Notes: generated from the sequence alone by a model not told the origin. A DNA stretch of 64,000 nt from an uncultured Candidatus Binatia bacterium (GCA_965213675.1 OZ243916.1:256001-320000); one strand, 5' to 3'. Positions 51,781-64,000 are shown, counted from the first letter of the stretch. Numbers and translations are program-made.

Positions 51781-53022
51781 TCACCCCTCTCCCACCGCCG
51801 CTTGCCGGGTTCGGCTCGCCTCCGCGGCCGCGTGGGCCTTCTGGAAATCGGCCTCGTCGAAGTTGTAGAGGCCGGCCCCGCCCATGAAGATGGCGCCGGC
51901 GATTTCCCGTGACACGTTGTTGAGCAGGTTCGTGGAGACGTTGGGGAAGTTCGAATCGAAGTGCGGGTAGTCGGTGGAGATGCACATCCGGTCCGCGCCG
52001 ATGAGCTCCGCGGTTCCGGCGATCTCCGGCTCGCTGCCTTCCACCGCGGCCCAGCAGTTGCGCTGGAAGTATTCCCGTGGCGTCAGCGACAGGTACGGGG
52101 CGTGGGAGTCGCGGTAGTTGGCGTAGTCCCATTCGATGCGCGTCAGGATGCCGGGCACCCAGGAGTTCTGCGCTTCGAGGTAGCCCACGCGCAGCTTGGG
52201 ATGGAACTCGAACACGCCGCCGATGATCATGGCGATGAGCGCCTGCTGCATCTCGATCCAGTGACTGGCCACGTGGCGGTAGAAGCGGTTCTCGCCGTAG
52301 AGCGCGTTCATGTGGGAGTTCCACGCGCCCGTGCCCTCATGGAAACACCAGGACACGTTTAGCTCCTCGTGCAGGCTGTAAAGCGGTTCCCAGTAGTTGG
52401 AGTGCCAGAAGTGGCCGTTGACCATGTTGGGCCGGATGAACGAAGCCACGGCGCCGAGTTCCTGCACCGCCCGCTTGAGTTCGCGGCACGCGAGGTTCAC
52501 GTCATGCAACGGCAGCATGGCGGCGAACTTCATGCGCTCGGGACAGTGCTGGCAGAAGTCGTGGATCCAGTCGTTGTAGGCGCGGCTGAGGGCGTGGGAG
52601 AGGTGCGGATCCATGTGGTCCCGGGCCAGCAGGCCCAGCCCGCCGGTGGGGAAGAGGACAGCGATGTCGATGCCTTCCATCTCCATGCCCATGATCTGGG
52701 CTTCCTCGTCGTAGCCCCGCTCGATGGCGAAGTCCATGCGCCCGGTGTCCGCCAGGCGCGAGGCCGACAAGACCCCGGTGGCGGCGCCGATGACCGGCCC
52801 CGTCGCCTTGGACGAAGCGGCCCTCTTGCGATGCTGTTGCAGTTCCGAATCCGCCCCCGTGGCGAGACCGTCGATGGTCCAGGTGCGCCGGCTGACCTTC
52901 CCCTTGGCGTCCACCGCCCAGGTCACGCGGTGCTGGAACTCAGGGTCCAGGTACTTCTCCAGCAGGTTCCCGGGCTCCTGAATGTGCATGTCGCTGTCCA
53001 CGAAACGCAGGCCGTCCTTCAT
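51781..53022 (-). CDS. Amidohydrolase_2 family protein
   Basis: FVDSDMHIQEP, RAYNDWI, FHEG, GGVFEFHPKLRVGYLEA, STDYPHFD. Confidence 0.9.
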   Translation of the reverse strand: MKDGLRFVDSDMHIQEPGNLLEKYLDPEFQHRVTWAVDAKGKVSRRTWTIDGLATGADSELQQHRKRAASSKATGPVIGAATGVLSASRLADTGRMDFAIERGYDEEAQIMGMEMEGIDIAVLFPTGGLGLLARDHMDPHLSHALSRAYNDWIHDFCQHCPERMKFAAMLPLHDVNLACRELKRAVQELGAVASFIRPNMVNGHFWHSNYWEPLYSLHEELNVSWCFHEGTGAWNSHMNALYGENRFYRHVASHWIEMQQALIAMIIGGVFEFHPKLRVGYLEAQNSWVPGILTRIEWDYANYRDSHAPYLSLTPREYFQRNCWAAVEGSEPEIAGTAELIGADRMCISTDYPHFDSNFPNVSTNLLNNVSREIAGAIFMGGAGLYNFDEADFQKAHAAAEASRTRQAAVGEG

Positions 53023-53420
53023 GATCGTTCCTCCTGTGACCGCGGCCCGTGAGCGGGCCGGTCCCGTGGCGTCGATTCGCCGGTCCGATGCGTTGAATCC
53101 AACACGGTCCAACACGAACTGAGCCGACCCTATCGCAAGTGGTCGGACAGGGTCAATGAGCGCTGGCGCGCCGATGCGGGGGCGGCTGTCCGTAAAGGTG
53201 CGGCCCGCGGTCGCCCGGGATTTTCCCGCGCGTGTCGGACCCTTGAGGTTCCATGATTCGACTTCGCTGTTCCAGAACTCCGGATGGCGGGACTCTTGGA
53301 CAATGCCGCCGTTCTGTGACAGATTGATACTGATCGATTGAGAATAGGCCCGCGGCCGCCGTCTGGCGATTCCGTACGCCCGGCGCCCTACCGGTTCAAC
53401 ATTCCCACAGGAGAACCTCC

Positions 53421-54350
53421 ATGCGACCCACGCTCCAGCTTGCCCATCGCACGCGCGCTCCGATCAAGCGTCTGCTTGCCGTCGGGTGCGTGGCGCTCGC
53501 GGCCGCCGGCTGCGCCACGAGCGCGGACACGGCCCGTCTCCATCTGGTGGCCGATGCGGGCCTCGCGTACACCGCCAAGGCGCCGCGTCTCCTGGACCGG
53601 GCGTTCGAGTTGGCCGCGGCGGTGGATTCCCACGCCTTGTCGGGCGCGCGCGGCGGGCTATCCGGGGAACAGCGGCGGGACGCGCTGGAACGGTTCGACG
53701 CCGCCATGACGGAACGCCGGAAGGCCTACGACGCCGCCACGCGCCACAATGCCTTGCTGCGGTCGTACTTCGCGGCCCTGCGGACGCTGCTCAAGGCCGA
53801 TGCGCCCCAGGAAAGCGGCGCCGCCGCCAAACGGTTGGCCGCGGACCTGGGCAAACTGGCGCCGCGACTCAAGCAGGCGCGTATGGGAGACGTTTCCGTG
53901 GGCGCGTTGATCGAACCCGCCGCGACCCTCGCGGTGGCGTCTTTCCGTTCCGCCGCCCTGCGGCGCGAGTTGCAAGCGCGCGCCGCCGTCATCGAGCGTG
54001 AGCTGGCCCTTCAGGAAGCTCTGGTGGCGGCGCTGGCGCGGCAGGTGCGCGCGGACCAGGAGTTGCTGTCCGAGGTCTTCCGCAACGATGAGGTGCTGGC
54101 GCCCTACGTGAGCGCGAAGCGGTTGCCCAAGACCTGGCCGTCGCGGCGGTTGAAGAGCCTGCGCGCGCCCACCGACGTGGCCGCGGCGCAGGCCGCCGCA
54201 CGGGCCGTCCGCGCACTGCGGAAGGCCTACGTCGCGGCCGTCGAAGCGCGCCTCGACGCTGGCCGGGCCGCCGAACTCGCCACCACCGTCGAGGGCTTTG
54301 TCGAGCTCGTGTCGCGCCTCGGCGCCGAGGCAGGGAGGGCCGTCCGATGA
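53421..54350 (+). CDS. Hypothetical all-helical lipoprotein
   Basis: Lipobox LAAAGC; RBS AGGAG; long Ala/Arg/Leu amphipathic helices; host-like codon usage. Confidence 0.7.
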   Translation: MRPTLQLAHRTRAPIKRLLAVGCVALAAAGCATSADTARLHLVADAGLAYTAKAPRLLDRAFELAAAVDSHALSGARGGLSGEQRRDALERFDAAMTERRKAYDAATRHNALLRSYFAALRTLLKADAPQESGAAAKRLAADLGKLAPRLKQARMGDVSVGALIEPAATLAVASFRSAALRRELQARAAVIERELALQEALVAALARQVRADQELLSEVFRNDEVLAPYVSAKRLPKTWPSRRLKSLRAPTDVAAAQAAARAVRALRKAYVAAVEARLDAGRAAELATTVEGFVELVSRLGAEAGRAVR

Positions 54351-54682
54351 CCCCGACGGAAATCCGTGGAAAGACGCTGTCCGAGTTGCGCAAGGCGCGG
54401 AAGGACATGATGTCCGCCGAATGGCTCGCCGCGGTCGAGGACTTCCCGGAAGCCGACCGCACCGCCGCCGCCCTGGCGCTGCTGGACGTCTGCCTGGCCG
54501 TTCGCCGGCTGGAGAACACACGCGTCGCGTCCATCCGCCAGAAACTCGCCGACAATGGAACGGACCTCGAACGCGGTGTCCAGGCACTTGAACGGGCGAG
54601 CAAGAGGCTCCGCCGCACGGAAGCCTACCTCAAGGCCGTCGCCTTGCTGGTTTCCACGTTGGCCAAGGTGCTCAAGCCGTAA
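54347..54682 (+). CDS. Hypothetical small coiled-coil protein, translationally coupled to lipoprotein
   Basis: ATGA overlap and RBS GGGAGG; helical sequence. Confidence 0.65.
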   Translation: MTPTEIRGKTLSELRKARKDMMSAEWLAAVEDFPEADRTAAALALLDVCLAVRRLENTRVASIRQKLADNGTDLERGVQALERASKRLRRTEAYLKAVALLVSTLAKVLKP

Positions 54683-54835
54683 TCGCAGGGGCGGGCGGCA
54701 ACCACCTGCGACGTTGGAATCGTGTCTCCCAGGAGTCTGCCGTGATCGTGGCCGATTCCGACCGACCGGACTATGCTTGCCGCGTAGTCGGTTCCAGTGA
54801 CGCGACACGTTGTCCCATTCGCGATGCCAGCGGCC

Positions 54836-55927
54836 CTACACGTGGATCCAGCGTTCCTCCTCCGCGGCGCGCAGGGCGGCGTCGAGCACGCGCTGGGCGG
54901 CGAGGCCGTCGGCGAAGCTGGGTGAGCCGGGGCTGCCGTTGCGGATGGCGTCAACGAAGTCACGGGTGAGCTTGGCGAAGATGAACTCGCCTTGGGCGCG
55001 CTGGGGGTCGGAGTCGTCGAGTCCGCGGGTGTAGCGTTCGGGAATGTCCAGCGGTTCGGGGGAGCGCGTGTCGCCCCGGGCGCCCCATAGGTGGCCGCGC
55101 ACCCAGCCCCGGACGTTGCGGTCGAAGGCGAAGCGCAGCATGCCGGCGTCGCCGTAGATTTCGAGGTTCTGGTAGTTGCTCTTGCGCGCCACCGCGCTCA
55201 GGCGGATGCACGCCGTGGCGCCGCCCGACAGGCGCCCGAGGAGCGTGAAGCTGTCTTCCACCGTCACCGGCCGCAGTGTGCCGTCCCCGTCCGGCAACTC
55301 CGGGATGAAGGTGTCGGCTTGGCCCAAGACGCTTTCAAATTCGCCGATGAGCCAGCGCAGCCGGTCCACCATGTGTACGCCGATGTCCCCCATGACACCG
55401 AAGCCGGCCAGCTCCCGCTGGTGGCGCCAGTAGTGGGTCAGGCCGGGCGTGGCGCGGTTCTCGCTGAACCAGCGGGCCTCCACTTGGTGCACGCGCGCGC
55501 CCACGTAGCCGTCGTCCAGCAGTTCCTTCATGCAGGCCAGGGCCGGAATGTGGCGGTGGTTGAAGGCGGTCATGTGTACGCGCCCGGCGGCCTCCGCCTG
55601 AGCCAGCATGGTCTCGGCCTGGGCGGCGTTCAGTGCCAGGGGCTTTTCGCACAGCAGATGCAGTCCGTGTTGGACGGCAGCGGCGACCATTTCTGCGTGG
55701 AGGTGCGGCGGCGCGACGATGCTCACGGCGTCGAGACCGGGGTGGGCCAGCAACTCCCGGTACTCGGAGTATACCTGGGGTATGCCGTATGCCTTGGCGG
55801 TGGCTTGCGCCTTGTCGCGCGTCCGTTGGCAGAACGCCACAACTTCCGCGTTGTCGGTCGCGCCGAAGCCTTGCAGGTGCTGGATGCCGAAGCCCCCGCC
55901 AATGACCCCTATCTTCACCACTGTCAT
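54836..55927 (-). CDS. Gfo/Idh/MocA family oxidoreductase
   Basis: IGVIGGGFG, HLLCEKPLA, AFNHR, GVMGDIGVHMVD. Confidence 0.92.
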   Translation of the reverse strand: MTVVKIGVIGGGFGIQHLQGFGATDNAEVVAFCQRTRDKAQATAKAYGIPQVYSEYRELLAHPGLDAVSIVAPPHLHAEMVAAAVQHGLHLLCEKPLALNAAQAETMLAQAEAAGRVHMTAFNHRHIPALACMKELLDDGYVGARVHQVEARWFSENRATPGLTHYWRHQRELAGFGVMGDIGVHMVDRLRWLIGEFESVLGQADTFIPELPDGDGTLRPVTVEDSFTLLGRLSGGATACIRLSAVARKSNYQNLEIYGDAGMLRFAFDRNVRGWVRGHLWGARGDTRSPEPLDIPERYTRGLDDSDPQRAQGEFIFAKLTRDFVDAIRNGSPGSPSFADGLAAQRVLDAALRAAEEERWIHV

Positions 55928-56146
55928 GTACTTTCTCCCTCAGGTGGTTTCATTTGGATCAATGCTGTCCCATGGAAATACGAACAAGGAAAAACCTGAC
56001 GCACTCACCTGTGTCGAGATGGAAGCAGCAAACCCCATCAACAGTGAGGTTCAGGTCCATGGTGAACTGTCATACCGCATTGGGGCAGATACTCAACCCC
56101 AGTGTTGCAAACGTGTCGTGGAGAGCGATTCGGAAGACGGCCTACA

Positions 56147-56503
56147 AAGCATCCTTCCGGCGAAGGGAAGCACCATCCCCGCGAAAGCAGGCATCATACC
56201 CGCAGAAGGAAACGTCTTTCCGGCGAAAGGAAGCGTCATACCCGCGGAAGGAAGCATTATTCCCACGAAAGGAAGCATCATTCCCGCAGAAGGAAGCATC
56301 ATTCCTGCGAAAGGAAGCATCATTCTCGCGGAAGGAAGCGTCATACCCGCGAAAGGAGGCATCATTCCCGCGAAAGGAGGCATCATTCCCGCGAAAGGAG
56401 GCATCATTCCTGCGAAAGGAAGCGTCATTCTCGCGGAAGGACACGTCATTCCCACGGAAGGAAACGTCATTCCCGCGAATGGAAGTGCCATTCCGGCAGA
56501 AGG
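56147..56503 (+). repeat. Tandem array of 17 degenerate 21 bp units, consensus AAGC(A/G)TCATTCCCGCGAAAGG (half-REP derived)
   Basis: Exact 21 bp periodicity with no spacers. Confidence 0.95.
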
Positions 56504-56507
56504 AAGA

Positions 56508-56602
56508 GTCATTCCCGCGAAAGCGGGAATCCAGGCGGGGCGTGGGCGGGGACACCGGCCAGTGGGTCCCTCTCTCTGGATTCCCGCTTCCGCGGGAATG
56601 AC
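56508..56602. repeat. REP-like palindrome doublet (GTCATTCCCGCGAAAGCGGGAATCCAG ... CTGGATTCCCGCTTCCGCGGGAATGAC)
   Basis: Two inverted copies of the widespread ATTCCC-N8-GGGAAT REP/dRS3-like palindrome about 40 bp apart. Confidence 0.88.
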
Positions 56603-56900
56603 GTCTCGTAATATTTCCGATAACCCTACTCTGCCGCTCAACCTCACCTACAGTGACATTCCCCAACAACCCTCTCCTTGAAATCCCGTCCCACGTGCCT
56701 CCCGATCCCCTCCTTGCTTCCAGCTTTCGCAGCATTGGGGTCAAGATGGTGCCGAGACATGAATTCGCGAAGCGCGGGCGCACCTACGCGGACGCACCGA
56801 GCGGGGCAGCGGTTGCGGAAAATGACGCGGTTGGGGCGGCTTCTGGCGATCCGATCCCTGGCGGCAGCCTCGGTTACCCGAGCCAAGCAGTTCGGTTCAA

Positions 56901-57077
56901 CTGAAGCGCACCCATTCGAGCGGAGACGGCTTCCGGTTGCTGAATTTGCGCGGGCATCGTTTCGTGCGGTTGATCCTCGCGTCGGTCGCAACCGGCCAGG
57001 ACGGACAGAAGGATGATGAGAATGAGAGGGAGGATGAGCGGCCGGCCATCGAATTGATTCTGTGCTGTCTCGTATAG
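56901..57077 (-). pseudogene. Truncated paralog of the N-terminus of lipoprotein 61978..63570
   Basis: ETAQNQFDGRPLIL...LAGCDRREDQPHETMPAQIQQPEAVSARMGALQ aligns with KTRQSQLNPHSIIL...LVGCDQRDESPNESTLANPQQPGTQSAQLDSLK; stop at 56874. Confidence 0.72.
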
Positions 57078-57276
57078 GCCGTCGAATATGTGCAGGCGGT
57101 CTCCCCGTGGCGCCGTTGTCGAGTTCCTGAAGGAGGCTCTCCGGTGCGAACTCCACGGCGTGTCACGCGGCGAGGAACGCTGAACGTGAATCTGCATGTT
57201 GGCATCATGGTCGGGGCGCTTGTGTCGCCGCTGCACGGAGCCCTCAGGGCCTGGCAGCGATGTCGCGCGTCAGGAG

Positions 57277-58671
57277 TCAGTGCGGGCCCGCTCCGTTGGC
57301 GGCTTCAAGGCCATAGTGCCGATATACGGCCTCATCCACGTGGCGGCGCTGGTCGACATCGAATTCCCTGTAGTACCATCCCAAGAAATAATCAGCGCCA
57401 AGCTGAAACGGTATCGCTATGAAGACGCCGATCTTGGCGCCGGCCCAAGCTCCCGCTCCCGCAGCCACGCCGCCGGCCGGAAAAGCAGCGATTCCGCCAA
57501 CGATGGCGCCGACGGTGGTAGCCCCGGCTAAGATGGCCGTCGGAGTGGCGCGACGGAATAGATCACGCTGACTGATGCGGCCCAGGTTGTACTCATGATA
57601 CGCGGTAACCAACCGAAGTCCCTCTACCGCGAACGTGACAGGCAGCAACGCGGCGTTGGCGGCCGGGACCAGTACCCTGCTTGCGGCCAGATTGAAAGTC
57701 GTCAATCGAGCGGCCGAACTCGCGCCCAAGGCTGTTGCCTGGCCGATCCTTCCGATGGCGACGCCTGTCTGCATGTGGGGCAGAAGACTCCCTTGCAGGG
57801 TAGGATCGTTGAACATTCCCCGGGCGACCCCGGCCTGCTGGAATGCATCCCACACCAGTCCGGCTGCCCCCGCAACGCCGAGGATTGCCACGCCCTGTGT
57901 GCCTCTGAATTTCAGCATTGCGGCGGACTGGGCCCTACGGGCTTCCCGGAAGACTTGTCGAGCGCCGACACTCTCCCGGGTCATCGCTCGTTCGATCGCG
58001 CGCGCCTGCCCCGTCACGTTGGTGCGATTCCACCGACCCTCAAGCCTAGGCTCACCGGGCCGGCCCATCGTGTGAGGGGTCCTTACGACGCCCGTGACAA
58101 GGCGATTCTTCTGCGCGGCCACGATTACCCGGGCCGACTCGACCCGGGCTTGTCTGGTTGCGTTGGGCGACATGATGACCCTTCGAGCAGACCAGATCGT
58201 ATTTGGGTTCGTGCCTTGTGAAGAACCGTAGGTGATAGTGGGCCTGGAGTTGCCTCCTTTCGCTTCGATCACACGGACGACACCCGTCCGGCGGTCCCAA
58301 TACACGGAGTCCGGTCCCTGGCGGATGCCGCGGTTTCTGGAGCCGAGCAACTGGCTCCAACCGCGTTCCGTAGCAAATCGGGCCCGACCCTGTTCCCCTA
58401 TTCGTTCCGCTAGACGGGCTCGATCATAGAAAAGCGCACCACCATATTCGCGTCGATAGTCGCGCTGAAAATAGTATTTGGGCTCAGCTCCCACAGTCGG
58501 AAAGAGCTTTTGTGCCGTGTCCGGCGTAGCCAACAGCCAAAGCCGCGCCGCCTGCTCCCGTGGTGTCAAGGGCAGGCTCAAGGTTGAGGCGCCGGAACGA
58601 GTCGGTACTGCACTGAAAACCGTCGTGGCCAACACGAACACGGTTACGGCGATTAACTGATGGATTCTCAC
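57277..58671 (-). CDS. Putative exported PD-(D/E)xK nuclease-fold protein with hydrophobic Gly/Ala-rich C-terminus
   Basis: Signal-like N-terminus; ERIGE..G...QGPDSVY...VRVIEAKGG.S...QGT motif; C-terminal GATTVGAIVGGIAAFPAGGVAAGAGAWAGAKIG. Confidence 0.65.
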   Translation of the reverse strand: MRIHQLIAVTVFVLATTVFSAVPTRSGASTLSLPLTPREQAARLWLLATPDTAQKLFPTVGAEPKYYFQRDYRREYGGALFYDRARLAERIGEQGRARFATERGWSQLLGSRNRGIRQGPDSVYWDRRTGVVRVIEAKGGNSRPTITYGSSQGTNPNTIWSARRVIMSPNATRQARVESARVIVAAQKNRLVTGVVRTPHTMGRPGEPRLEGRWNRTNVTGQARAIERAMTRESVGARQVFREARRAQSAAMLKFRGTQGVAILGVAGAAGLVWDAFQQAGVARGMFNDPTLQGSLLPHMQTGVAIGRIGQATALGASSAARLTTFNLAASRVLVPAANAALLPVTFAVEGLRLVTAYHEYNLGRISQRDLFRRATPTAILAGATTVGAIVGGIAAFPAGGVAAGAGAWAGAKIGVFIAIPFQLGADYFLGWYYREFDVDQRRHVDEAVYRHYGLEAANGAGPH

Positions 58672-58771
58672 GATCCGTCCTCCGGAAATTCCTGCGATGG
58701 GTTCATTTCGGCCTTCGAATCACCGCCGACTGCCTCCGCAACCCTGTCAACGATAGGCTCCGCCTCGACAT

Positions 58772-60385
58772 TCAGTTGGCGGTCTGTACGGGTTGAAGGG
58801 AAGCAATCGCCCGTTTCCCCAGACGCCACAGGAGAGCACCATTCACGGCTCCTTCCGCTACTCTGGGGAGCACGCGGCCGACCAGGTCTCCCACGATTCC
58901 GCTCGTTTCGCTCCACAACGTGTCCATGATCGCTTCGGTGCCTTGCTGCGCCAAGCCAGCAAAATAAGTCTGCTGTATGGAACGTGCTAAGATCGCGGCC
59001 GTCTGCCCGACGGCGGGGCGCAGTCCGTAGAGGAACGTTAGTTCCTCGATCATCGCCGCGCATGCGTACAGCACGGCACCGTTGTCGAGCACTGCCAACC
59101 GGGAAACGGCGGTTCCCGCCGCCACACGCGTTGCCCAGTGTTTGATGCGACGTTCCGCCGCGCGATCCAGGATCGACTGGAATTGGCTGCGGAACTCCGA
59201 AAGCCACGCGTCCGACGGCTTGGATTCGTCGTTCGCCAAGAGCGACCGCCGCTCGAGTACAAGGCTATCCCACTCGCCGTCGGTCAAGCCGAGGCCCTTC
59301 AAACGCCTGCAAGCCTCGTCGTTGAGTTGGTAGTTTTCAAGGTAATTTCGCAATTTGTGAATTGCCTGTTCTGCATGTTCCTCAACCAGAGCCTGCATGT
59401 GCCGGCGCTCTTGAAGGGCCTGGATCGCGCGTAGGTTGACAGATGGACTGCGCTGCAAACGGAACAGCGCGACGGCGAGTCGTAGTATCATCCAAGTCAG
59501 AATCCCGGCGAAGAGAAGGGCCAAAAAGCCCATGATCCAGTTGAACGGCACCGGCAGGGTCGCGATGCTGGAAATGGCCGCCGTAACCTGAGACACGACG
59601 AAGAGTCCGAGCACGGCCGCCAAGGCAAGCCCGCCCCAAGTCAGGGCGCGACGGATGCCGGAGGGCAGCGCGAAAGCCGCGGGCTGTTGCAGCTCTTTCT
59701 CGAACTGTCGCCGCAACGCCTGGTCCTCCACGCACCTGGCCTCTTCGATCTCCTGTTCGCTCAAGACTCGGGCACCGTCCATCCGGGATCGGGGCGTTCC
59801 CAAGCCATGGTCACCCTGCCTCAGTTCCGGAAAGTCTGTGGTCGTGGCCTCGGCATCCAGGTTTGCGACTTGCTGCACTTCCGTGCCGTAGCTCTGTTGT
59901 GACTCCTGTTCGCTCAAGACTCGGGCACCGTCCATCCGGGATCGGGGTGTTCCCAACCCATGGTCACCCTGCCTCAGTTCCAGAGAGTCGATGGTCGTGC
60001 CCTCGGCACCCAATTTTGCGAGTTGCTGTGGTTGTGTGTCGGAACTCTGCCGTGACTCCTCGTCGACCAGGCGAGGCGTGCTTTCGATTTCTTGAGCACT
60101 CAGCACTGAGGAGGGTTCCTTCGGAGATGGAAGCGTTTCCGACCGGTGGTCACCTGCCGCCGGTTCCGGCGCCTCTGTAGTCGTGGTGTTGGGTTCCACG
60201 GTTGCGAATGGTTGCGGTTCCGTGTCGGACTGCTGCCGCGACTCCTCCGGTTCCGGTCGCTGCGTTTCCTCGATCTCCTGATTGCTCAGCACTCTGGCGC
60301 CGTCCATCCGGGATCGGGGTGTCCCCAACCCGTAGTCGCCCTGCCTTGATCCCGGTGTATCCTTGTTCGTTGTCTTGGTATCCAT
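58772..60385 (-). CDS. ycjF: YcjF family (DUF697) membrane protein with repeat-expanded N-terminus
   Basis: Two TM helices then LDRAAERRI...TAVSRLAVLD...LYGLRP...EGAVNGALLWRLGKRAI..LQP, matching YcjF C-terminus; directly after ycjX. Confidence 0.82.
   Translation of the reverse strand: MDTKTTNKDTPGSRQGDYGLGTPRSRMDGARVLSNQEIEETQRPEPEESRQQSDTEPQPFATVEPNTTTTEAPEPAAGDHRSETLPSPKEPSSVLSAQEIESTPRLVDEESRQSSDTQPQQLAKLGAEGTTIDSLELRQGDHGLGTPRSRMDGARVLSEQESQQSYGTEVQQVANLDAEATTTDFPELRQGDHGLGTPRSRMDGARVLSEQEIEEARCVEDQALRRQFEKELQQPAAFALPSGIRRALTWGGLALAAVLGLFVVSQVTAAISSIATLPVPFNWIMGFLALLFAGILTWMILRLAVALFRLQRSPSVNLRAIQALQERRHMQALVEEHAEQAIHKLRNYLENYQLNDEACRRLKGLGLTDGEWDSLVLERRSLLANDESKPSDAWLSEFRSQFQSILDRAAERRIKHWATRVAAGTAVSRLAVLDNGAVLYACAAMIEELTFLYGLRPAVGQTAAILARSIQQTYFAGLAQQGTEAIMDTLWSETSGIVGDLVGRVLPRVAEGAVNGALLWRLGKRAIASLQPVQTAN
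59740..60350 (-). repeat. Four degenerate intragenic units in YcjF (RQGD(Y/H)GLGTPRSRMDGARVLSxQE core, three well conserved)
   Basis: DNA repeat visible at about 59750-59830, 59900-59980 (153 bp apart) and 60275-60345, plus a degenerate unit at about 60090-60160. Confidence 0.85.
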
Positions 60386-60396
60386 GGCAGCCCTCC

Positions 60397-61764
60397 CTAC
60401 ATGGCGACAAAGTCGAATACGGCGTTCAAATTTCGATGCAGAGGAGGCCTCTGGCGGTTGCGCGGCAAACGAGGGGCCACATCGGGAAACTGGTAACCAT
60501 CCGGATCCCAGTCGCCCGGCCAATCCTCTGGCAGCGAGGACACGAAAAACTCCATGCGTAAACGGTCTGGATTGTCGTGCATCGGGACACCGCCTAGATG
60601 GTCATCGTCCATCTTGTCCGTCCGAAAGGTGGAGACGCAGGAGCTGCAGTCAAACCATCTTACATCCGCATTGGGACACAGTTCCCTTACACGCCGGGTC
60701 ATGCTGTGCAACAAGGACTTCATACGACCCTTGTCCAGGTCGGCCGTCTTGACGAGGTCGGCTTTTGTAGCGACAAAGGCCACCCGTTGCACCGCGGGTG
60801 ACCAGAACTTCAATTTTCTGAACAGGCTGCGGATGGAGGAATGATCCTGCATGTGTTCGAACAACGCCTGCAGGACCTGGCGATTGTCGTTGTAACGATC
60901 AACGCCGCCGAGAAGAAGTGATCGGATATCCACCAGTACGATCAGGCTGTGGACGCTGGTCATTTTCTCGAATACTGGCATGACCACATCCGCGCGGTAG
61001 TGTTTGTAGCGCGCGTTCATCGCTTGTAACAAACTGGGATCCTTGTCCAGCAGGTGTGCCGACAGCGGGGCGAACCGACTCGACAGCTCCGAACGATGAA
61101 GCCGTTCCTCGGCCATTTTATCCGGTTGATCGGGCCTAACCACATTGCCGTGACGACTCAACATGAACTCTGACGGCGATACCAGGGGCCGGTATTTCAA
61201 TGCGAATCGCGCCAAAAGCGTCCAATAGCTGCGAACGACCTGTTGCAACCGGTCGAAGGGCGTCTCAGTGTCGTGCTGCGACGGTTTGACGGACACAGCC
61301 AGGATGGCCTCCAGTTCCTGCTCGTATGCCTTGATCGCGTCCCAGCGAGAGGAGTCGCTGGCCAATTGTGCAAGCATGTAGCGGGACCAAAGGGCGAAAT
61401 CGTCATGCAGCGCAATCCCCACGTCCGCGATACGCTCGCCAGGGAAATCGAAGAATTCCAGCTGTTGTTTCCATCGTTGGTCAGAGCGGGTGAAGGTGCA
61501 TACGTAACGATGGTCGTGCGTCGTCTTCATGGGCCAACGACTCTCTTCCGCGGCCATGAGACTCCGAAACTGCTCGAACGGAAAAGCCATTGGGGTCGGA
61601 ACTTCACGAAATCGAGTGATCTTCGCCTTGTTTTCGAGTTCAAAGTTCATGCTGTCGAATTCGTGCAGGTGCCATAACAGAGAGGTCAGGAATGCGGTCT
61701 TGCCGCTGTTCTGCAGGCCAGTGAGGGCAATCTTTCTTTTTTTCGTGGTCAGGTCGAATGCCAT
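60397..61764 (-). CDS. ycjX: YcjX family P-loop NTPase (GTP-binding)
   Basis: IALTGLQNSGKTAFLTSL (G1), FFDFPGE (G3), FVATKADLV (G4), C-terminal PLHRNLNAVFDF. Confidence 0.88.
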   Translation of the reverse strand: MAFDLTTKKRKIALTGLQNSGKTAFLTSLLWHLHEFDSMNFELENKAKITRFREVPTPMAFPFEQFRSLMAAEESRWPMKTTHDHRYVCTFTRSDQRWKQQLEFFDFPGERIADVGIALHDDFALWSRYMLAQLASDSSRWDAIKAYEQELEAILAVSVKPSQHDTETPFDRLQQVVRSYWTLLARFALKYRPLVSPSEFMLSRHGNVVRPDQPDKMAEERLHRSELSSRFAPLSAHLLDKDPSLLQAMNARYKHYRADVVMPVFEKMTSVHSLIVLVDIRSLLLGGVDRYNDNRQVLQALFEHMQDHSSIRSLFRKLKFWSPAVQRVAFVATKADLVKTADLDKGRMKSLLHSMTRRVRELCPNADVRWFDCSSCVSTFRTDKMDDDHLGGVPMHDNPDRLRMEFFVSSLPEDWPGDWDPDGYQFPDVAPRLPRNRQRPPLHRNLNAVFDFVAM

Positions 61765-61977
61765 GTTGTAGGAGTCCTTTGAGTGTGGCCGGCTTCTCTT
61801 GGGATCGACGCGTCGTGGTCGCGGTTGGTCGTGTTGATCCCGCCGGGTGGCCGGTTCGGTTGGAGTTGTCTTCACCAGCATGGTCACCCCATTTGGGCAA
61901 AACCCAAGGCAAGGCGTGAGCCGGCAACACGTTGAAGGCCGAAGTGGTAGTGGCAAGCTACTCCAAGGGACAATAGC

Positions 61978-63570
61978 TCACGAGCCGTCCTCCAGGAAAT
62001 GGCGTATCGGCTTCTTCTTGGCCAGCGCTGACTGTTGCGCTACTTCCATCTGCTCGCGGCGACCGTCCAGCTTGTTCCAACCATCTCGAAACGCCTGTTG
62101 GTATAGCTCGGCGACGGGCAGGTCCAGCAAGGCGCGGTTGATGGGCAGGAGGTAGACGATCATGGCTTGCCGGACTACTTGATGCTCCGAGGGGTGGGGG
62201 TCATGTAAGCGCAACAACTTGAGAAACAACCGCGGCATGCGCTGCTCGGTGGCCCACTTGGAGTAGTCGTCAAGCGCAGCTTTGAACTTCCTGATTTCGG
62301 CAAGTGCCCAACCCTGATACGACCGCACCGCGCGAGCGTGGCGCTCTTCAGCCTGTCGAGTCGCTTCGGTCTCGTGGGTGGCTACGGCACGACGCAACTC
62401 TCTTTCCAACCGTTCGTGGGCCGGCGCCTGGACGCCGTTCAGAGCCAGTGCCACACGGGACGCTGCCACCCGCTGCAGTAGTGCCCTGAGAGCGGTCACG
62501 TGGACTGCGTGTCGAGCGCGCTCCGCTCTCCGAAGTAGCAACGGACGCCATTGAGGCTGATGAGCTTCATAGATGGCCGGTAGATCGGGCTTCAGTTGCT
62601 GTACGGTCTGCCATTCGCTTCGCAAGATGTCGGCCTGCTCAACGGCTTGGCGTCGCAGCCTCAATTTATCAAGCTTCTGTCGCAGGGCCGGGACATCGAC
62701 GTCGGGGTCAACGACCTCCTGGTCTAGCGCAGCGATTTCGAGCGCGTCGTAGAGCGTGCCAACCTCTGCCACGTTGGCGGTGGCGCCCTGAGTTCCCTCC
62801 AGGAGTTCTTCAGCCTGCTGTACGGCCTCGGTGACGCGCCGCCGAGTAGCCTCGCCAAGGAGTGCGTTGGCGCACTCCTGTATCAGCGAAACCAACTCCC
62901 CAGCGGTGCCTTCCGGTGTGGCTGTCGCCAAGGCACCCGCCAAGGCACGCAGCTGGTCGACCCGTTGATCCAGTTGGTCAAGCGACAGGGTCTCATCGGA
63001 CGGTACATTCAGATGCTTCCAGCCGTTCCTGCATGTCGTTGGGGTTGTACTCGCGGCGAGCGGCGGAGCTGCATCCGGCGCGTCATTCAAAGTCGTGAAT
63101 ACCATCGCCGCCCAACGGATTCGCGAGAGCCGCGGAAGGTACTGCGGTTCGGCCCATAATGGGAGGCCAGTGACCAGCGCGGATACCCCCTCAAGGAAGC
63201 TCTCGGCCTCGCCGGGGTTCTTCGGCCATTGGCTGACGTCGCTCACCTGCTCTTCAAGTTCCGCGAGGCGGCTTTCCCACTCAGGAGGCATGGTGGCGAG
63301 GACAACGCGTCTCCGTATCTCTTGCAGGACGTCGGACTGCGCGCCAAAGGCGTTTCGCAGTTGTTGTATCTGGTCCTTCAGCGAATCCAATTGAGCGGAC
63401 TGGGTTCCCGGTTGCTGCGGATTTGCGAGTGTTGATTCGTTCGGCGACTCGTCGCGCTGGTCGCAGCCCACCAAGCCCGCCAGGAGGAGGAGAACGAGGA
63501 TGATGGAGTGAGGATTGAGTTGACTTTGCCGTGTCTTGTGGCGGGGTTTGGGCATTTTGAGCATCCACAT
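61978..63570 (-). CDS. Hypothetical large helical lipoprotein
   Basis: Basic N-region, hydrophobic IILVLLLLAGLVG-C lipobox, coiled-coil-rich body; start uncertain (63570/63555). Confidence 0.72.
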   Translation of the reverse strand: MWMLKMPKPRHKTRQSQLNPHSIILVLLLLAGLVGCDQRDESPNESTLANPQQPGTQSAQLDSLKDQIQQLRNAFGAQSDVLQEIRRRVVLATMPPEWESRLAELEEQVSDVSQWPKNPGEAESFLEGVSALVTGLPLWAEPQYLPRLSRIRWAAMVFTTLNDAPDAAPPLAASTTPTTCRNGWKHLNVPSDETLSLDQLDQRVDQLRALAGALATATPEGTAGELVSLIQECANALLGEATRRRVTEAVQQAEELLEGTQGATANVAEVGTLYDALEIAALDQEVVDPDVDVPALRQKLDKLRLRRQAVEQADILRSEWQTVQQLKPDLPAIYEAHQPQWRPLLLRRAERARHAVHVTALRALLQRVAASRVALALNGVQAPAHERLERELRRAVATHETEATRQAEERHARAVRSYQGWALAEIRKFKAALDDYSKWATEQRMPRLFLKLLRLHDPHPSEHQVVRQAMIVYLLPINRALLDLPVAELYQQAFRDGWNKLDGRREQMEVAQQSALAKKKPIRHFLEDGS

Positions 63571-63772
63571 AGGGGTTTTTCCTTTGATGTTTGAGGTGCC
63601 CTGTCCAGCAGGCCGTGTCGTGAGGTGCCAAGCGGGGACGTAGCAGAACCTCATTGATATGAAAATGAACTGATGATTCGACAATTCAGGGGGTTACGAA
63701 TCGGTACGCCTTGCGCGTCGTCCCCGCCTCGGCCTACCTGCTTTTCGCCTCCGAGCAGGATCGAGGGAAGGC

Positions 63773-63872
63773 TTGCGTGGGAATGACGGAGCAAGGGCGG
63801 GCATGACCGGGAAAAAAGGTGGGAGTGACGGAGGAAGGGCGGACAGGCCGAAGGAGCGAAAAGCGGATGACG
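63773..63872 (-). repeat. 4-5 degenerate half-REP units (GGGAATGAC-like) in orientation opposite to the 56147 array
   Basis: GCGTGGGAATGACGG, GGCGGGCATGACCGG, GGTGGGAGTGACGG ... GCGGATGACG at about 20-25 bp spacing. Confidence 0.6.
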
Positions 63873-63879
63873 TTTGGTC

Positions 63880-64000
63880 TTACCCGGATATGGTGGCGAG
63901 GGCGCTGGTGAGGTCGTCCACCACCACGGCGATGGCGAACAGGGTTTCGGACTTCTGACCCAATGCAGTACGGCGAAGAGGAGGTTGGTGGAGGCCATGG
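63880..64000 (-). pseudogene. Fragment of AmpG-like muropeptide MFS permease, frameshifted and truncated (5' part outside window)
   Basis: MASTNLLFAVLHW then, in a shifted frame, KSETLFAIAVVVDDLTSALAT-ISG-stop; resembles an AmpG TM segment. Confidence 0.6.

Follow-up and report, generated by a model that had tools for sequence, protein, structure and literature searches.

The DNA analysed here is a window of 64,000 nucleotides (nt), taken at its full length, from an uncultured Candidatus Binatia bacterium (GCA_965213675.1 OZ243916.1:256001-320000). It corresponds to G000:C1:256001-320000 of a 4.5-Mb metagenome-assembled genome, and all positions are given in window numbering. Between 56874 and 63684, the window carries four intact co-directional open reading frames (ORFs) on the minus strand, which encode a lipoprotein (LIPO), a YcjX-like GTPase, a YcjF-like membrane protein and a predicted exported protein with a nuclease-like domain (P4). 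A preliminary description of this DNA had proposed these four genes and had read them as a single, horizontally mobile system. While the gene content and the mobility were confirmed, comparison with related genomes revealed that LIPO-P4 is the conserved functional unit and that the YcjX-YcjF pair (YcjXF) is its genus-restricted companion. The features of the locus are collected in Table 1.

Table 1. Features of the cassette and its downstream repeats in window numbering
Feature	Position	Strand	Basis
LIPO, helical lipoprotein, 530 amino acids	61978..63570	-	ORF call and homologue alignment of start
YcjX-like P-loop GTPase (DUF463), 455 amino acids	60397..61764	-	PF04317; start from homologue ORFs
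YcjF-like DUF697 membrane protein, 537 amino acids	58772..60385	-	PF05128; start matches G024 homologue start
153-bp tandem repeat, 2 copies, 86-91% matches, in ycjF N-terminal extension	59750..60060	.	repeat scan
P4, exported protein (predicted), 464 amino acids	57277..58671	-	ORF call; 71 homologues
PD-(D/E)xK (restriction-endonuclease-like) domain of P4	57952..58479	-	structure model and conserved residues
N-terminal remnant of another lipoprotein gene (lipobox LAGC-D), within ORF 56874-57236	56901..57074	-	identity to LIPO
21-bp tandem array, 18 copies, between cassette and oxidoreductase gene	56147..56523	.	repeat scan
Interspersed repeat	~56500..56750	.	genome self-search

Gene structures and protein families

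The start of LIPO was set at M39 of a 568-amino acid ORF by alignment with its homologues, which yields the 530-amino acid lipoprotein that had been described before. Bacterial lipoproteins are recognised by the lipobox at the end of their signal peptide, and an Asp at position +2 is the rule for retention at the inner membrane. The LIPO signal peptide, with a hydrophobic segment at residues 18-36, ends in the lipobox LVGC (Cys36) and is followed by Asp at +2, which suggests that the protein would be held at the inner membrane. Start and lipobox were conserved in more than 20 homologues, and LAGLVGC-D was kept in the family alignment. Homologues of LIPO form 26 clusters, none of them named, and motifs of the family are well conserved. 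No Pfam match above cut-off and no sequence match in the PDB were found for LIPO, and an atlas search gave no usable match. The second lipoprotein gene, of which only a remnant is left at the locus, showed 38% identity to LIPO residues 49-103 (40% over 30 amino acids by blastp) and was 97% conserved in contig C4, a strain version of the locus described below.

The proposed identities of the YcjX-like and YcjF-like proteins were borne out by Pfam matches above cut-off. The YcjX-like protein matched PF04317 with 131.4 bits (cut-off 25, E 5.7e-38) over profile positions 2-438 of 443. It contains GLQNSGKT, DFPGE and TKAD, which follow the patterns GxxxxGKT, DxxGE and (N/T)KxD and which we take to be the G1, G3 and G4 motifs of a GTPase, and its homologue ORFs start at MAF/MAY/MIF...KRKIA(I/V)TGL. 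The match to the solved YcjX structure 6nz4, whose alignment takes in the P-loop and TKAD stretches, was distant (E 7e-8), and that to the DO-GTPase2 profile PF19993 stayed under its cut-off (23.8 bits, cut-off 27). Relatives bearing the name YcjX family protein form a continuum in other phyla. The YcjF-like protein, whose gene starts 11 nt past the ycjX stop, matched PF05128 with 63.2 bits (cut-off 27.7, E 3.1e-17) and the NCBIfam YcjF subfamily TIGR01620 with 68.1 bits, below the cut-off of 160. It consists of an N-terminal extension of ~225 amino acids, two transmembrane helices (253-271 and 287-305) and DUF697. The extension carries the motif GD(H/Y)GLGTPRSRMDGARVLS three times, and its repeat region is common to the homologues of all three cassette layouts, with tblastn matches at several offsets. 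We also observed that a unit of 51 amino acids repeats within the extension (window 59600-60385). Passages in three papers (PMC3041696, PMC9239133 and PMC11237479) present ycjXF as a sigma-32-linked pair of unknown role, loosely tied to psp operons, and connect it with membrane stress.

P4 comprises a signal peptide at ~1-29, a PD-(D/E)xK domain at 65-240 and a helical, hydrophobic glycine-zipper tail at ~255-464. Its homologues numbered 71 in 90% clusters, none of them named, and a profile search extended the family to 614 representatives (50% identity) at E<=1e-3, with 204 at E<=1e-30. No Pfam family was detected in the N-terminal domain of P4 or of 40 distant members. The domain carries a GPD...EAKGG motif, and residues 65-240 folded alone (AF2, alignment of 62 sequences) gave a pLDDT of 96.5 and a pTM of 0.91, the order of elements being one helix and three strands, then helices and more strands. 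Specifically, helix 1 contains E89, D121 marks the beginning of strand 2, and strand 3 carries E136-x-K138, with Q152 coming after it; in the numbering of the domain model, E25 falls in helix H17-38, D57 just before strand E58-62 and E72/K74 in strand E67-75. Alignments of 41-62 family members showed these five residues (E89, D121, E136, K138 and Q152) to be invariant or at least 90% conserved.

The structural matches of the modelled domain were weak but agreed with one another. With the VIA tool, which itself warns that a Z under 8 possibly reflects a common arrangement only, restriction-endonuclease-fold nucleases occupied 16 of the 20 top rows; the best match was 3fov (Z 6.7, root-mean-square deviation 3.7, 102 aligned residues), and the Cas4-family ACE1 (Z 5.4) and the Hjc-type Holliday-junction resolving enzyme 1ob8 (Z 5.1) were also listed. 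Foldseek returned AdnAB, Exo5, lambda exonuclease and Hjc, with a best E of 0.11 and none <=0.001, and an atlas search gave three rows at 0.90, including an Mrr_cat cluster, a result that we treat as a lead only. The restriction-endonuclease-like identity of P4, suggested earlier from its motif, is supported at the level of modelled fold and motif.

Export signals were called with a hydropathy rule of our own. P4 has an N-terminal hydrophobic signal at residues 6-24, and such a signal was present in 148 of 167 family members that had a Met start and the motif at least 90 residues in. Two N-extended members carry a transmembrane anchor ahead of the domain. Export, as predicted in this way, looks like a trait of the P4 family.

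The P4 tail, which had been described as pore-former-like, is of glycine-zipper type. Its hydrophobic segments are located at 259-277, 331-351, 379-405 and 402-420, with a glycine-zipper hairpin at 379-420, and the whole region (~255-464) was modelled as long helices with moderate confidence. Glycine-zipper Pfam families were matched by the tails of 9 of 41 distant members, and comparison of the family profile with PDB sequences gave tail matches of glycine-zipper type only. P4 reached 19.3 bits (E 8e-4) against DUF6861, under the cut-off of 28 and over profile positions 39-80 of 194 only, and DUF6861 was precomputed in 9 of the 71 homologues. A preprint passage presents DUF6861 as a glycine-zipper membrane domain joined to toxin domains. 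Similarity of the family profile to colicin domains (A pore domain, E 0.011; S4, E 0.092; B, E 0.46) may be compositional; fold searches with the whole-P4 model returned generic helical matches (GPCRs, BAR domains), and no colicin appeared among them.

A complex prediction for LIPO residues 50-530 and P4 residues 30-464 scored 0.25 against a mark of 0.32, a value that bears on binding in neither direction. No LIPO-P4 fusion protein was found among 209 family members. A nuclease-less P4 paralogue of 407-410 amino acids was observed in G013 (L025 9686-10918) and G021 (L026 7696-8919). Leader region and membrane tail are both retained in this paralogue, and a short, poorly conserved stretch replaces the nuclease core.

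Distribution and mobility of the two gene pairs

The preliminary description had considered that the lipoprotein and nuclease-like genes might never be syntenic with ycjXF in other genomes. Instead, the four genes recurred together in 6 of 28 genus genomes, PF04317 lying at the cassette each time it was present in the genus. A search of 25 genus genomes detected P4 in 8 (G000 counted), and G042 has it as well. Three gene orders were distinguished (X-F standing for ycjX-ycjF). G000, G012 and G022 are ordered LIPO-X-F-P4; G024 and G016 carry LIPO-P4-X-F followed by a P4 fragment; and G020 carries X-F-LIPO-P4. Three metagenome contigs share the G024 layout, one of them complete and two cut at ycjX. 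The P4 fragment past ycjF in G024 is 60.6% identical to the G000-type P4 and 44.6% to the P4 of G024 itself; taken with the lipoprotein remnant of G000, these identities fit one ancestral array of LIPO-P4 and X-F that underwent differential loss. Since the three gene orders are derivable from one array, they do not constitute independent evidence of linkage.

Several observations did not support the four genes being one system. G013 and G021 are ordered LIPO-P4like-LIPO-P4, without X-F, and have no PF04317. Similarly, five further LIPO-P4 genomes, two of which are labelled Alphaproteobacteria and Pseudomonadales, showed no X-F within 9 kb and no PF04317 anywhere in the genome (0/5); LIPO and P4 are paired across phyla. 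Conversely, PF04317 was present in 4 of 401 sampled phylum genomes (G000 counted), and at the other three ycjX-ycjF loci LIPO and P4 were absent from the 18-20 kb fetched (3/3). Spacing told the same pairs apart: genes within each pair overlap or lie 6-11 nt from each other, and the spacers between pairs measure 100-450 bp, those of the present locus being 213 bp (LIPO to ycjX) and 100 bp (ycjF to P4). LIPO is located directly upstream of P4, with the genes overlapping, in L033-L037 (5/5), G013, G021, G020, G024 and G016. In addition, at L028 position 8524 the ycjX gene of G022 reads TAA, a premature stop, in place of the CAA (Gln) of G000, leaving a 351-amino acid ORF without the P-loop, beside intact LIPO, ycjF and P4. 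It is because LIPO-P4 occurs without YcjXF, and YcjXF without LIPO-P4, that we consider LIPO-P4 the conserved unit.

The position of the cassette was examined by comparing flanks through filtered searches and tblastn. In relatives, the locus reads geneA, tRNA-SeC, a major facilitator superfamily (MFS) transporter, a GFO/IDH/MocA oxidoreductase, the cassette and R1-R4. The slot between oxidoreductase and R1 was empty (~0.1-0.7 kb) in G003, G004, G006, G007 and G015, held a short P4-tail remnant in G024 and was occupied by LIPO-P4 in G042. The G000 cassette sits between the MFS gene and the oxidoreductase, with R1-R3 1.07 Mb away. In G024, the intact four-gene unit was located 1.2 Mb away from the slot, where it immediately follows a tandem pair of tyrosine integrases. 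These two integrases have Arm-DNA-binding domains (L023 5120-7546), and the downstream side of the unit has one more integrase together with two HU-like genes (L023 13963-18720), an island context.

Substitution rates of the cassette were discordant with those of its surroundings. The synonymous divergence (dS) of the cassette was 0.14-0.26 against G012 and G022, with flanks at 0.29-0.69, and 0.11-0.86 against the strain contig C4, with flanks at 0.03-0.06; between the two co-assembled strains, cassette dS amounted to 2-30 times flank dS. The ratio of nonsynonymous to synonymous divergence (dN/dS) was 0.35-0.88 in the cassette and 0.17-0.20 in the flanks. The four genes also have a lower GC content than their neighbours, as had been noticed before (GC 0.56-0.62; GC at third codon positions, GC3, 0.67-0.70, compared with 0.85-0.91 in five flanking genes). 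Altogether, the discordant dS, the low GC3, the finding of sites both with and without the cassette and the integrases beside it in one relative support the horizontal exchange that the preliminary description had proposed.

Contig C4 (37 kb, L030), compared over window 52000-64000 and beyond, is a second strain's version of the locus, with flanks 96-98% identical and with ycjX and ycjF at 54-73% protein identity to G000. The possibility that it was a paralogous second copy was rejected, since its collinearity with C1 extends through the flanks at 96-98% identity. We also rejected the interpretation of its ycjX and ycjF as frameshifted pseudogenes: 3 of the 5 inferred frame switches (8753, 10989 and 11355) coincided with 1-base indels in independent contigs of four runs and are probably assembly errors, and coverage of the remaining two (~9346 and ~9633) was slight or absent.

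The claim that the region is bounded by arrays of repetitive extragenic palindromic type held on the downstream side only, where the 21-bp array and the interspersed repeat are found, the latter with up to 29 matches outside this locus and contig C4. The upstream side (63500-64000) showed no direct or inverted repeat and only 1 match elsewhere in the genome. The array of 18 copies abuts the interspersed element of ~200 bp (56147-56750) and reads as long spurious ORFs on both strands; neither the array nor the element has an Rfam match, and Rfam gave no match in 55500-64000 as a whole. A promoter scan of the locus found 0 promoter-like (sigma-70-like) sites, sigma-32 sites not being part of the scan, and terminator-like sites were below shuffled expectation.

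Some observations concerned neighbouring genes. The tRNA-SeC adjoins the 810-amino acid geneA beyond the window (~67213-69770, L046 3213-5770), and geneA homologues in several relatives contain single in-frame TGA or TAG codons. The longest ORF at ~65083-66633 (L046 1083-2633) was rejected as a gene for its wrong frame (dN/dS 2.7-3.0), the real gene there being the MFS transporter (L046 1229-2461), which is read from the same strand in a different frame. At 53421-54682 on the plus strand, two overlapping ORFs without a Pfam family encode 309 amino acids, with a lipoprotein-like N-terminus, and 111 amino acids; they are conserved in contig C4 and had no match in the slot regions from ten relatives.

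Interpretation of the cassette

The reading that we tentatively prefer is a mobile LIPO-P4 cassette for envelope conflict, in which P4 would be an exported, membrane-inserting nuclease effector and YcjXF a facultative companion. The cassette consists of two separable, translationally coupled gene pairs, with LIPO-P4 as the core. P4 would leave the cytoplasm by its Sec-type signal peptide, so that the PD-(D/E)xK domain, with its intact catalytic set, would face the periplasm and the glycine-zipper helical tail would insert in the membrane. LIPO, whose gene would overlap that of P4 in the ancestral layout, would stand at the inner membrane as the cognate partner that holds, anchors or neutralises P4, possibly in physical contact with it. 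P4 might then cut nucleic acid at or across the membrane, either incoming foreign DNA or that of a competitor. The divergent ycjX-ycjF pair, a presumed Ras-like GTPase and a DUF697 inner-membrane protein with a repeat-bearing cytoplasmic extension, would have entered the cassette within one genus and been co-inherited since. Its part would be that of a dispensable helper, whose most plausible task is to buffer or gate membrane stress arising from the P4 tail, and not that of an obligate component. Signs of the conflict-like kind are the tandem pairs, the orphan fragments (a P4 fragment in G024 and G016, a lipoprotein remnant in G000), the nuclease-less paralogue, the hypervariability at strain level and the raised dN/dS.

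A number of points weigh against this reading. The structural matches of the P4 domain are weak (best Z 6.7, best Foldseek E 0.11), and the export signals come from a home-made hydropathy rule and no trained predictor. LIPO, YcjF and P4 had no match in PADLOC-DB 2.0, in which YcjX gave two marginal ones (PtuA, E 0.014; PDC-M05A, E 0.039), and none of the four proteins had a match in PHROGs. The nuclease domain of P4 is N-terminal and conserved across the 614 representatives, whereas in classical polymorphic toxins the toxin domain is C-terminal and swapped, and the gene of the putative partner LIPO lies upstream of P4. Several hydrophobic helices would tend to retain P4 in the membrane of its producer, which argues against a released toxin. 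Finally, all four genes are intact with dN/dS <1 in G000 and G012 and moved jointly to the integrase island of G024, and these facts fit a working four-gene unit equally well.

Such a unit would be an obligate four-component system in which cytoplasmic YcjX hydrolyses GTP and YcjF passes this on across the inner membrane, the two together deploying or gating LIPO and the exported P4 effector in toxin delivery, membrane remodelling or anti-phage action. Beyond the intactness and dN/dS of the genes, this explanation draws on the location of all YcjX genes in the 28 genus genomes at the cassette (6/6) and on the three gene orders, one of them the interleaved LIPO-X-F-P4, which are nevertheless derivable from one capture event and not independent. 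The second, integrase-side context of the four genes in G024 and G016, together with three metagenome contigs, the lineage-specific repeat extension of YcjF as a possible docking site, and a fragment pattern of the kind that a tandem array of four-gene units would have left behind all speak in its favour. However, 7 genomes with LIPO-P4 have no YcjX gene, YcjXF lacks LIPO-P4 at all three of the remaining loci sampled in the phylum, the spacers between pairs reach 100-450 bp, and G022 keeps LIPO and P4 intact beside a ycjX with a premature TAA. We consider an obligate system unlikely.

The opposite explanation, in which ycjXF is an independent membrane-stress pair that merely shares an insertion hot spot with LIPO-P4 and is functionally unlinked to it, also appears improbable. 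The slot is indeed variable, being empty or occupied by LIPO-P4 alone or by both pairs; the pairs resemble separate operons, tight inside and with long spacers between them; and YcjX is sporadic in the phylum (4/401 genomes), with relatives across other phyla, as expected of a gene acquired alone. Nevertheless, within the genus YcjXF was never found away from the cassette (6/6), and it stayed with LIPO-P4 on the move to another chromosomal site.

A facultative companion to a LIPO-P4 conflict pair, our preferred reading, could also be taken further: P4 and LIPO might define a class of PD-(D/E)xK nuclease effectors, new and widespread, that are Sec-exported, insert in the membrane, each have a cognate lipoprotein at the inner membrane and act at the envelope as a toxin or to exclude DNA, with YcjXF recruited in this Binatia lineage as their dedicated membrane-stress or gating module, an extension to which we give a distinctly low probability. 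Quite improbable in our judgement is a LIPO-P4 pair that serves as an envelope housekeeping device, either a membrane-anchored periplasmic nuclease that handles extracellular or incoming DNA for uptake or as a nutrient, or a structural membrane complex with a ligand-binding PD-(D/E)xK domain: the predicted export of the domain across the family, hydrophobic helices that would hold P4 in the cell's own membrane, the breadth of the family (614 representatives) and known defence libraries without a match for LIPO or P4 would agree with it, but the cassette is patchy (LIPO-P4 in 9 of the genus genomes examined), housekeeping genes seldom show its island behaviour, tandem copies with decayed fragments, elevated dN/dS and hypervariability between strains, and the invariant catalytic residues argue against a purely binding role.

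Significance and comparison with known systems

No description of the four-gene arrangement or of the P4 family was found in the open-access literature and bioRxiv, in line with the earlier suggestion that the arrangement was undescribed. The novelty is the pairing of two unnamed families as a mobile unit and its lineage-specific tie to YcjXF. YcjX and YcjF are a conserved, stress-induced pair, and their joint travel with a membrane-active partner offers a concrete hypothesis; if the recruitment reading is true, this would be the first defined 'client' of YcjXF and a route to study the role of the pair. The P4 family, with neither a Pfam model nor a name, would place outside the cytoplasm a domain of restriction-endonuclease fold with its catalytic residues intact, which a glycine-zipper membrane tail extends and a large lipoprotein accompanies. 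Bacterial conflict systems would gain a further family if P4 turned out to act as a toxin or to bar foreign DNA. Within a single genus, the locus also illustrates clearly how one cassette slot can be empty, partly filled or full.

Compared with the YcjX-YcjF pair of E. coli and Shewanella, which belongs to the sigma-32 regulon and often neighbours psp operons, the locus shares both families, their order and their tight coupling. Its pair is, however, only distantly related (E 7e-8 to 6nz4; TIGR01620 below cut-off), its YcjF adds the ~225-amino acid N-terminal extension with three repeats, and it shares a mobile cassette with LIPO and P4, without psp or tyrR context. As for PD-(D/E)xK nucleases such as Hjc, ACE1 and VRR-NUC, together with the uncharacterised protein RPA0323 (3fov), the modelled P4 domain has their alpha-beta-beta-beta-alpha-beta core and the canonical E...D...ExK, and differs by the absence of a Pfam match, the signal peptide and the glycine-zipper membrane tail, at Z values of 4-6.7. 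Set beside DUF6861 architectures and pore-forming colicins, to both of which its sequence similarity is weak, P4 joins a glycine-zipper hydrophobic hairpin to a nuclease-type domain; its domain order is reversed, the nuclease coming first, and the partner is a 530-amino acid lipoprotein encoded upstream in place of a small immunity or lysis protein.

The DO-GTPase conflict systems described by Kaur et al. (2020, eLife; PMC7159879), an article in which YcjX occurs 0 times, have in common with the locus a constant GTPase module beside variable membrane-linked effectors. The locus has a single GTPase whereas theirs is a pair, and neither GAP1 nor GASH turned up at the locus, where no search was aimed at either. 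Finally, unlike polymorphic toxin cassettes, the locus has no variable C-terminal toxin domain followed immediately by an immunity gene, but it shares with them the tandem arrays, the orphan fragments and the hypervariability at strain level.

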